This document shows positions 55,901-58,900 of a DNA stretch of 64,000 bases, piece after piece. Source of the stretch: Minisyncoccia bacterium (lineage in GTDB: Bacteria > Patescibacteriota > Minisyncoccia > Phycocordibacterales > UBA6065); NCBI GenBank assembly GCA_044233485.1, contig JBIIJY010000003.1, positions 32,481-96,480 of the forward strand, read 5' to 3'. Each line of letters opens with the position of its first letter. The stretch's first letter is position 1. The position numbers were made by a program.

Positions 55901-58900
55901 GTCACTCTTGAACCGCTCGCGACTGCGACGCGTGTACCAGGTAGAGACATCATCAACAAGCGTTGTCAGTTCTCGAACACCAACATCAAGAGTATACGAC
56001 TCAAGAGCATGTGTGATAGCTGCATGCGCTCCGCGAAGGCGTTCAATCATCCAGCGGTCGAGAATATGTGTTGTGTGAGCCTGTGCACTGATAGTCTCAT
56101 CAGCATAGAGCTTATAGAGAGTTAAGACATTTTCCAGACGATTTAAAACTTTGTTCTGGACTTCGGCTACTGATTTTTCAGAGAAATGTAGATCTTCCGC
56201 TGAAACAACCGGTGAACCAAGGAGGACAAGTCGCAGAGCGTCCATACTGTATGCTCGAATGACCTCGAGCGGGTCTGGATAGTTTTTGAGACTCTTGGAC
56301 ATTTTCTTACCATCTTCTGCCAACACAAGACCGTTCACAATCACGTTCTTAAATGGACTTCGTCCAAAGAGTGCTGTACCGAGCACAAGCAGAGCATAGA
56401 ACCAACCACGAGTCTGATCGAGTCCTTCAGCAATAAAGTCCGCCGGAAATCCCTTTCCTTGAGCTGGATCAAAAGCCATCGTCGGTGTTCCAGTAAAACA
56501 AGCCTCGCCGTACGGCATTGAACCAGATTCAAACCAACAATCAAAGACATCTGGCACTCGAGTCATCAACTTTCCTTTTGAATCAAGTATTTCAAGACCA
56601 TCGATATACGGTCGGTGAAAATCGATTTCGTATGAGGGGTTACGCGGAAGTTTTACACTGAGCACTTCTCGAACTTCAGCGTTACCAAATGGCGCAACGA
56701 GCTCATCAGTAACATGTCCGAGAAAATGACTTTGCAATACTCGTAGAGGTGTACCATGAGCAATAATCAAAACATTTTTGCCAAAAAACTTTTCTGAAAT
56801 ATCTTCTACAGCTGCAACCATACGAGCGCGCACTGCAGTCAGATTTTCCATATCAGGAAGCGTGTAGGTAAAGGCTTGCTTACGATGTGGAAACTGTGCG
56901 TGGAATTCTTCCCAGTTTTTCCCATGAAGGGCGCGAGCACCGAGTTCACCAAGTCGTGGATCAACAACGATATGTGCATCAGAAAGCCCGAGGACATCTT
57001 GCACCTCTTTAAATGTCTCCTGTGTGCGCACGAATGGAGACACCGCCACCACATCTATATGTTTACCTTTGAGTTTTTGAGCACTCAAGCGCACCTGGGC
57101 TACCCCTTCAGGAGTGAGGTGATCTGGCGCATTTGGATCAGTACTGACTTTATTCTGAAGATTACTTTCGGCTTGCCCGTGACGCATCAGATACAGCGTG
57201 TTGCGGACTTTTGAATGTGCCACAATATCTTCAACTGTACTGAGAACTTTTACTTCAGTACCATCTTCACTTTTCCATACCGGTAGTGGCGCCCCCCAGT
57301 ATCGAGTACGTGAGATTGCCCAATCGCGAGCACCCTGGAGCCACTTTCCAAAACGCCCTTCCCCCACATGAGAAGGCACCCAGCGTACATCTTTATTAGC
57401 AGCTACGAGCTCGTCTTTGAAAGATGTTACTTTCACAAACCAACTTGAGGCAGCGTAGTTTAGAAGCGGAGTCTCACAGCGCCAACAATGCGGATATGAG
57501 TGAACGAGTTTTTCCTTTGCGAAAAGCGCACCGTGCATATGAAGCCACTTGATGACTTCTACGTCTGTTTTCTGATGAGGATCCTTTTCCCCTGCATCAC
57601 CCTTCGGCTTTACATACAACCCGACGAAATCACGAACCTCGGGCTTGAAACGCCCGTCGACGCCGACATGCTGAATAAATGGCAGAGAGTGTTTTACACC
57701 GAGCTGATAGTCGTCTTCGCCATACCCAGGAGCGATGTGAACTACCCCGGTACCATCGTCAGTTGTAACGAAGTCTGCGGCATAGATTTTCCAGCCATTC
57801 TCGCGATTCTTGAGATTAGAATCCTGGGCGTAGTAATCGAAAACCGGCGCATATTTCTTACCAGTAAGAGCTAAACCCTTATACGTCTTTAGAATTTTGA
57901 AATCTTTCTTAAATAGCGTCTCGACGCGAGCTTGAGCAACAATATACTTTTCAGAACTACCAACTAACTCAACCTCTGCATAATCTATTTCAGAATTGAC
58001 CGCAAGAGCGACGTTACCAGGAAGTGTCCAAGGTGTGGTCGTCCAAGCAATGATAAAAGTCTGTGGTTCGTCGACCAGCGCAAATTTTACATACACTGAG
58101 ATATCAGTGATATCTTTGTACCCCTGATTCACCTCGAAGTTTGAAAGCGTTGTTCCACAACGTGGACACAAATGCATACTCTTGAATCCTTCATAGACTA
58201 ACCCCTTATCAAACAATGTTTTAAAGACCCACCAGACGGATTTGGTGTACTCAATGTCCATTGTCCGATAGTCATTCTCCATGTCTACAAAACGCCCAAA
58301 TCGCGGCACTTGCTCACGCCAAACTCCAGCGTATCGAAGCACTACCTCTCGAGCAGTTTCATTGAACTTCTGAATTCCAAACTGCTCAATGTCTTTTTTA
58401 CTCTTGAGTCCAAGCTCTTTCTCAACAAGGTTCTCTATCGGAAGCCCATGACAATCCCATCCCCATCGTCGAGGTACACGAAACCCACACATCGTCTTGT
58501 ACCGAGGAATGACATCTTTGATTGAGCCCGCCAAAATATGTCCATAATGAGGAGTACCTGAAGCAAAGGGTGGACCATCGAAGAAAATAAATTCTCCACG
58601 TGGAGCGTTTTTCTCCAAAGTCTTTTCGAAAATTCGATGCTGCTTCCAATGGGCGAGAGTTTTTTCTTCTCGTCGCGCCGTTTCGCTCATGTGTGGATTT
58701 GTATGTGACATAAAATAAATAAAAGAATAAGCCAGACGCGAGTGAGTCTGGCTTATCTTTTGAGGAATTAAGTCAAACTCACGAGGTACTACCCGTTACT
58801 AATTGCAATAGAAATTCGTGTACCTCGGTTTGACTTCATGTGATGTATAGTAATACGTCTCGGGTCTCTTTTCAAGCTACTTAAGTGTAGCGGTCCTACC

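Follow-up and report, generated by a model that had tools for sequence, protein, structure and literature searches.

A probable isoleucine-codon leader-peptide attenuator in front of ileS in a genome of the Patescibacteria

We analysed a 64,000-nucleotide stretch of the genome of a Minisyncoccia bacterium (Patescibacteriota; GenBank assembly GCA_044233485.1, contig JBIIJY010000003.1, positions 32,481 to 96,480 of the forward strand), here called the window, with attention to the leader that precedes ileS, the gene for isoleucyl-tRNA synthetase. The IleS of the window contains the Pfam domains tRNA-synt_1, Anticodon_1 and DUF5915 together with an inserted His_Phos_1 domain, and its homologues, which are named isoleucyl-tRNA synthetase, put the window in the Paceibacteria/Parcubacteria group of the Patescibacteria. 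Between the stop codon of an upstream gene and the ileS start codon lie a promoter, a short open reading frame (ORF) and two hairpins, the second of which runs into a U-rich tract (Table 1); no antisense ORF was found at the leader. All leader and ileS coordinates refer to the minus strand of the window. An initial annotation had read this arrangement as a trp-type transcription attenuator. The ORF, the first hairpin (1:2), the complementarity between regions 2 and 3, the terminator and the U-tract are all present where it had placed them. The 165-nt leader it described corresponds, however, to an RNA of about 128 nt, since the promoter occupies 58875-58847.

Table 1. Positions of the promoter, leader elements and ileS in the 64-kb window
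Feature	Position	Strand	Basis
Upstream 547-aa gene	stop at 58877	-	
-35 hexamer TTGAAA of the leader promoter	58870..58875	-	promoter scan
-10 hexamer TACTAT, 7 nt before the leader ATG	58847..58852	-	promoter scan
Leader ORF, 16 codons + TAG, MKSNRGTRISIAISNG	58789..58839 (ATG 58839, TAG 58789)	-	
Proposed regulatory cluster, ATT (Ile) at codons 9, 11 and 13	58801..58815	-	
Region 1, 5' arm of hairpin 1:2 (anti-antiterminator)	58820..58836	-	
Region 2, 3' arm of hairpin 1:2	58770..58789	-	
Antiterminator 5' strand GUGAGUUUGACUU, part of region 2	58782-58770	-	
Region 3 AAGCCAGACUCAC, antiterminator 3' strand	58742..58754	-	
Intrinsic terminator hairpin, 9-bp core; extends to 58761-58721	58729..58754	-	
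U-rich tract UUAUUCUUUUAUUUAUUUU, running up to the ileS start codon	58712..58728	-	
ileS, proposed regulated gene, 1151 aa from ATG 58711	55256..58711	-	Pfam

The promoter is sigma-70-like, with a 17-nt spacer between its two hexamers, and the clustering of three isoleucine (Ile) codons within five codons of the 15-codon peptide has a probability of P = 0.015 at the Ile frequency of this genome. Hairpin 1:2 consists of 17 bp with a 3-nt bulge (-25.0 kcal/mol) and holds the ATT codons in its loop; the region 1/region 2 duplex has an energy of -21.8 kcal/mol, which was reached by none of 5000 shuffled sequences. The antiterminator strand of region 2 begins 6 nt past the leader stop codon. When it is set against region 3, 12 of 13 positions pair, one of them as G.U, giving a duplex (2:3) of -14.5 kcal/mol that is matched by 1.2-1.5% of shuffled region 2 sequences or genomic 20-mers. 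Region 3 is made up of the terminator 5' arm and half of the terminator loop, and the terminator stem (3:4), when extended to 16 bp, has an energy of -20.5 kcal/mol. The minus strand of the window has only one other strong terminator. All the parts of a ribosome-mediated attenuator can therefore be recognised in the sequence, namely a short ORF with a usable start, Ile codons, a terminator, mutually exclusive 2:3 and 3:4 pairings, hairpin 1:2 and the corresponding geometry.

We think it likely that this leader is a ribosome-mediated leader-peptide transcription attenuator, tuning ileS to the supply of charged tRNA-Ile. The observations on which the proposal builds are the leader elements with their energies, the extent to which they are conserved and covary, and the geometry of the promoter. 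In the proposed mechanism, transcription would start about 7 nt past TACTAT, and the RNA would begin at or beside the AUG of the 16-codon ORF. With no ribosome loaded, or with one that passes all three AUU codons and reaches the UAG, region 2 would be sequestered by region 1 or, in the latter case, partly covered by the ribosome. Region 2 being unavailable, region 3 would pair with region 4 to form the terminator, and RNA polymerase would stop in the U-tract before the ileS AUG. When Ile-tRNA is scarce, the ribosome would stall on the AUU codons in the 1:2 loop and keep region 1 off region 2. The freed region 2 would then form the antiterminator with region 3, the terminator would be blocked, and ileS would be transcribed.

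To date, a single close lineage is present in public data, represented by the IleS protein P0002 (locus L081), which is 90% identical to that of the window and is encoded in the same synteny; a search with the N-terminal IleS fragment returned no additional relative above 72% identity. Between the window and L081 the leader is identical at 110 of 111 positions (58712-58822), compared with 69-79% DNA identity in the flanking genes, 44-49% at third codon positions, about 47% at synonymous sites and 63% in the other intergenic region. L081 retains the leader ORF as MKSNLSTRISIAISNG, with three Ile codons, and has kept the U-tract as well as all three pairings (1:2, 2:3 and 3:4). Within the RNA, change is restricted to four places. 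Two bases differ just before the leader ATG. In region 1, CGAGG is replaced by CUGAG, which changes RG to LS in the peptide, and the hairpin is kept by a register shift (-17.9 kcal/mol). The leader ORF further carries a synonymous change of GCA to GCC, and the U-tract a 2-nt U insertion. This comparison points to strong purifying selection on the leader, and to a constraint in this pair that exceeds what the attenuator model needs. It may reflect an extra function of the terminated RNA or a recent local exchange.

The leader is also present at the loci of the four next-best IleS protein matches, L088 and L089 (P0003 and P0004) and L090 and L091 (P0005 and P0006); with those of the window and L081, this gives the six leaders compared below. 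IleS identity is 55-59% both between these four loci and the window and between the two pairs, and leader identity between the three groups is only 43-54%. Within the sister pairs it rises to 76% (L088/L089) and 82% (L091/L090). Each of the four loci has a -35/-10 promoter followed after 6-7 nt by a GTG start and an ORF of 15-16 codons. The stop codon and the G-rich region 2 downstream of it are 7-8 nt apart, the antiterminator and the terminator hairpin overlap, and the U-tract abuts the ileS ATG in L089, L090 and L091. The ORFs read MNRAISISGISIINH and MNRAISIRGISIINH in L088/L089 (consensus MNRAISI[S/R]GISIINH), MNTGNAIRIIISTIGR in L091 and MNRSNAIRIRSIISR in L090. Although the peptide sequence differs between lineages, its Ile content is kept: the six leaders (window, L081, L088, L089, L090, L091) have 3, 3, 5, 5, 5 and 4 Ile codons per 15-16 codons, and every ATT or ATC triplet that occurs within the ORFs is in frame (3/3, 3/3, 5/5, 5/5, 5/5 and 4/4). 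At least five Ile in 14-15 codons would be expected with a probability of only about 0.001-0.002. The L090 and L091 ORFs differ in length (15 versus 16 codons), with both the frame and the spacing from stop codon to region 2 kept. The ORF, the Ile codons, the pairings and the U-tract on which the initial annotation rested are thus conserved in L081 and, in diverged form, in both L088/L089 and L090/L091.

These lineages also bear on whether the promoter-to-terminator unit of about 120 nt could be a gene of its own, encoding a trans-acting small RNA or a 16-aa micropeptide, a role that could coexist with attenuation. The unit does have its own promoter and terminator, and its 99% conservation between species whose synonymous sites are near saturation is typical of an RNA with multiple contacts. 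Against this, the peptide is not conserved across lineages beyond its Ile content, each of the three lineages has the unit joined directly to its ileS ATG, and an nhmmer search with the leader against the window and loci L001-L084 gave neither a second copy nor a target-like match. We regard such a gene as very improbable. A DNA pattern search of metagenomes (GAGTTTGACTT-N8-28-AAGCCAGACTC) gave three matches, all of which were unrelated chance occurrences and were set aside.

To examine the pairings across lineages, a structural alignment of the six leaders was built by hand, in which the columns of region 2 are shared by 1:2 and 2:3 and those of region 3 by 2:3 and 3:4. Canonical pairs fill 90% of cells in hairpin 1:2, 83% in the antiterminator and 93% in the terminator, and the pairs changed on both sides number 6/12, 7/19 and 7/13, respectively; as the alignment was fitted to the helices by eye and is not retained by MAFFT, these counts, made by script, lean towards the model. 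In a control in which the partner strand was slid by 1-3 columns, 2-57% of cells were canonical and 0-3 pairs were changed on both sides. Six 2:3 pairs lie beside the terminator loop; none of the six sequences has a non-canonical pair there (GUGAGU/ACUCAC, GGGGUC/GGCCCU and GGGCUU/AGGCCC), and four of the six pairs are changed on both sides. Between L091 and L090, a G-C pair of hairpin 1:2 has become A-U, turning a Gly codon into Ser. An alignment-free comparison gave a consistent picture, as no more than 0.06% of region 2 shuffles matched both the observed 1:2 and 2:3 energies in any lineage. Compensatory changes in three helices, Ile codons held in frame and a conserved stop spacing therefore lend support to the attenuator that had been proposed from the window.

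Folding is in keeping with the same reading. The window leader has a minimum free energy (MFE) of -49.4 kcal/mol, well below dinucleotide shuffles (z = -4.8; RNAfold), and folds made under ribosome constraints fit the proposed model. For the latter, nascent transcripts of all six leaders were folded with footprint sizes assumed from Escherichia coli. With a ribosome placed at the Ile codons, the antiterminator forms in every leader at -10.7 to -22.6 kcal/mol. With the ribosome at the stop codon and 12-15 nt downstream of it blocked, the antiterminator is reduced by about 45-100% in every leader, to between 0 and -12.9 kcal/mol. At equilibrium, the full leader adopts hairpin 1:2 and the terminator in five of the six cases, and the MFE structure of L090 retains the antiterminator.

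The geometry of the promoter suggests how a ribosome might reach so short an ORF. In 19 of 40 genes of the window the ATG is preceded, at a distance of 6-8 nt, by a TAnnnT box, a spacing that is also the genome-wide mode, and Shine-Dalgarno motifs were not seen in the genes of the window, operon-internal ones included. The same TAnnnT-before-start pattern is found at ileS of many relatives. These features point to leaderless messenger RNAs as the usual type of gene start here. As the leader ATG stands 7 nt past TACTAT, which is the leaderless geometry of this genome, the mini-ORF would begin at the 5' end of the RNA; this indicates a transcript that starts at or beside the leader AUG, and so a leaderless one, which goes beyond anything claimed in the initial annotation. 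With leaderless starts common both here and at ileS of relatives, a 5'-terminal AUG or GUG is a plausible site of initiation. Upstream of the -10 hexamer, TTGnnn occurs at a distance of 17 nt in all six leaders. Both hexamers are exact in L081, although six of the first 12 spacer bases differ. A 28-codon ORF beginning at TTG 58875 was rejected as an alternative use of this segment: the six codon changes that L081 shows in its upstream part are all non-synonymous, and, given the two exact hexamers, the promoter is the better reading. As a separate observation, the TAnnnT start boxes of the window, seen for example at the starts 2827, 4661, 7140, the 13183-side starts, 51349, 60520 and 62270, often have TG upstream.

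Where transcription of ileS begins also matters for a simpler account in which there is no regulation at all. The terminator would then be a leaky one that belongs to the upstream gene or to a short leader, the 5' hairpin would stabilise the RNA, and ileS would be expressed by constitutive readthrough. It is true that many relatives have a plain upstream-gene terminator 20-60 nt before ileS and that in the full-length leader the terminator is always the thermodynamically favoured structure. In the window, however, the promoter sits between the upstream gene and the terminator, and, unlike the relatives with a plain terminator, which have a promoter after it, the window has none there: the promoter scan found neither space nor consensus for a further promoter between terminator and ileS. 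A candidate ileS promoter inside the U-tract was also rejected, as it has no consensus and its spacing varies in L081. Because no promoter fits after the terminator, ileS transcripts must pass through it. Constitutive readthrough gives no reason for the Ile codons, for the spacing of the stop codon or for a 2:3 complementarity that covaries, and strong terminators are rare in this genome. We therefore give this account very little weight.

A different possibility is that the same terminator/antiterminator switch exists and is flipped by something other than a translating ribosome, such as an RNA-binding protein (IleRS, for example), a small ligand, or an uncharged tRNA sensed in the way of a T-box, the mini-ORF being incidental. 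The conservation of almost every base of the RNA between the window and L081, beyond the need of a simple attenuator, would suit a sensor of this kind, and GGGUAGUACCUCG bears a superficial resemblance to a T-box motif. A T-box (RF00230) was nevertheless rejected: there is no covariance match, GGGUAGUACCUCG has no structural partner and there is no 3' partner for an A1 helix, and in place of a UGGN bulge the sole UGGN of the leader lies in the terminator 3' arm. Nor does the sequence point to an operator of the E. coli thrS type, in which the synthetase binds a mimic of the tRNA anticodon arm beside the ribosome-binding site: no hairpin loop mimics an anticodon loop with GAU, and GAUAA occurs only within the terminator stem. 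Rfam gave no match on the leader at E <= 10, and when gathering thresholds were applied to the window and to 17 related loci it gave none either, and the amino-acid leader families (Leu, His, Thr, Trp, Phe and others) were not among its results. Moreover, in the sister lineages the loop, linker and peptide vary, and what is kept are the in-frame Ile codons, the ORF length, the frame and the stop position, none of which a non-translational sensor would need. A switch without a ribosome thus seems unlikely to us, if somewhat less so than the two preceding alternatives.

Several points weigh against the attenuator proposed here. Translation of the leader ORF, stalling of the ribosome and a response to isoleucine in vivo are what we infer from the sequence. 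In the window and L081, positions on which the model places no demand (synonymous loop sites, the linker and the terminator loop) are frozen too, and the eye-fitted alignment described above belongs with these reservations. The window has just three Ile codons, placed in the 1:2 loop and not in region 1, whereas the Ile codons of the other two lineages begin within region 1 or directly after it. In L088-L091 the antiterminator equals or exceeds hairpin 1:2 in equilibrium stability, and in these leaders default termination would consequently depend on the order of folding. The U-tract of L088 is poor. Finally, the element is not widespread. An IleS search of GTDB contigs gave 80 loci at 37-58% identity, and among their approximately 70 usable upstream regions none combines an Ile-rich mini-ORF with a terminator; it is likewise absent from six further relatives (P0007, P0008, P0010, P0020, P0028 and P0037; loci L092-L097). 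Most of the GTDB relatives show an upstream terminator, then a promoter, then a leaderless ileS. Judging by this distribution, the leader element is confined to a small, patchy subclade.

One of the related loci shows a shorter arrangement. In L012 (CAZCWH010000004.1, approximately 3925-4001), TACTAT is followed after 8 nt by a mini-ORF that opens with ATG and reads MSDTHAFIYV. Its initial 16 nt nearly duplicate the ileS start (one mismatch), and it has a single Ile codon. This mini-ORF forms a hairpin, followed by TTTATTT, and ileS begins with its ATG 6 nt further on.

Among known systems, the pheST attenuator of E. coli, with its pheM leader peptide, alternative hairpins and terminator, is well established. 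It shares with the ileS leader a synthetase gene as its target, a short leader peptide enriched in the amino acid of that synthetase, 1:2, 2:3 and 3:4 hairpins and a terminator before the structural gene, and by this analogy it appears to be the closest functional counterpart. There is no sequence or Rfam relationship between the two, the amino acids (Phe and Ile) and the phyla (Gammaproteobacteria and Patescibacteria) differ, and pheM has a conventional 5' untranslated region with a ribosome-binding site where the ileS-leader ORF stands at the RNA 5' end. Like the ileS leader, the classical attenuators of trp, his, thr, leu and ilvGMEDA/ilvBN have regulatory codons, a stop near region 2 and an antiterminator overlapping the terminator 5' arm, with energies of a similar order (here -25, -14 and -20.5 kcal/mol). 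Unlike them, the ileS leader would regulate a synthetase and not a biosynthetic operon, it matches no Rfam leader family, and in the window its Ile codons lie in the 1:2 loop.

The initial annotation had called a peptide-based attenuator in front of ileS unusual, and this holds insofar as ileS is otherwise known as a T-box-regulated gene (PMC1262725). It holds less well for synthetases in general, as pheST is given as an example of a synthetase attenuator and attenuators before trpS and leuS have been reported in Streptomyces (PMC1262725), or for ileS leader peptides as such. In Caulobacter crescentus, a small coding sequence upstream of ileS (CCNA_03934) was found by ribosome profiling to be translated (PMC4117421), which offers a precedent for an ileS leader peptide. 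The part of that report available to us describes no terminator or Ile-codon mechanism.

A regulatory ORF at the transcript 5' end also has parallels in the Actinobacteria, in the leaderless attenuators of the poly-Cys type and of Corynebacterium/Mycobacterium ilvB. The mycobacterial poly-Cys short ORFs are leaderless attenuation ORFs (Canestrari et al. 2020, as cited in PMC13236596), and leader peptides are described in C. glutamicum (PMC3890552). These systems concern other amino acids, other targets and another phylum, and have no sequence relationship to the ileS leader. The ileS T-boxes, which act on a terminator in Firmicutes and on translation in Actinobacteria, respond for the same gene to the same signal, tRNA-Ile charging, and the Firmicutes type shares the terminator/antiterminator output. 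They differ in that the sensor proposed here is a ribosome on codons and not the binding of a tRNA, and the ileS leader has no Stem I, Specifier loop, T-box bulge or RF00230 match.

In the literature searched, nothing similar was described for Patescibacteria. The leader is apparently the first of its kind in the phylum, a new RNA family of known mechanism that evolved independently. On balance we favour, with less assurance than for attenuation itself, the fuller view that this is the first family of ribosome-mediated attenuators to be described in the Candidate Phyla Radiation, working through a leaderless peptide on whose 5'-terminal AUG or GUG a 70S ribosome would load with RNA polymerase within about 100 nt, and that the freeze in the window lineage may mark a second function of the terminated RNA. 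If true, this would mean tight coupling of transcription to translation and a surveillance of tRNA charging in minimal, amino-acid-auxotrophic cells. It would indicate that such cells monitor the charging of tRNA-Ile and adjust an essential synthetase to it, and that a regulatory mini-ORF can be translated from a leaderless start. In Patescibacteria, whose genomes are tiny, whose known regulators are few and for which there is no genetics in culture, well-supported cis-regulatory RNAs are rare. An element of about 130 nt gives a compact, testable object for the study of gene control in an uncultured phylum, and a new RNA family could be seeded from it. As a mechanism it is textbook, and what is gained is breadth rather than a new principle.

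The position of the ileS start codon relative to the U-tract deserves comment, as public gene calls begin IleS at the second ATG, 58690 (1144 aa). Across the seven codons between ATG 58711 and 58690, both L081 substitutions are synonymous, and in relatives ileS likewise starts straight after the U-tract; for these reasons ATG 58711 seems the likelier start. Within the protein, the His_Phos_1 domain (PF00300, E = 1e-32, with the RHG motif) is inserted in the catalytic core at aa 506-670 (56702-57196, minus strand). A histidine-phosphatase domain is present in 120 of the 120 best IleS homologues, which are of the Paceibacteria type and, apart from the two closest, 49-56% identical. No paper describing this inserted domain was found in the literature searched.

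The gene upstream of the leader (58877-60520, minus strand) lies between argS and ileS and encodes a 547-aa protein with no Pfam match, whose N-terminal half is of low complexity and rich in Pro, Ala and Thr and which has one predicted hydrophobic segment. Its insertion between argS and ileS is seen only in the window lineage and L081. In L088 and L089 the order is argS, leader, ileS, recO and a DUF11/CLIPPER gene, without the 547-aa gene. The second strong terminator of the minus strand is a 17-bp A/U-flanked hairpin at 33040-33079 (TAAAACAAAAAACACCCGGTGAAGGGTGTTTTTTGTTTTA), where a gene of 460 aa ends; the symmetry of its A/T-rich flanks suggests that it is bidirectional.

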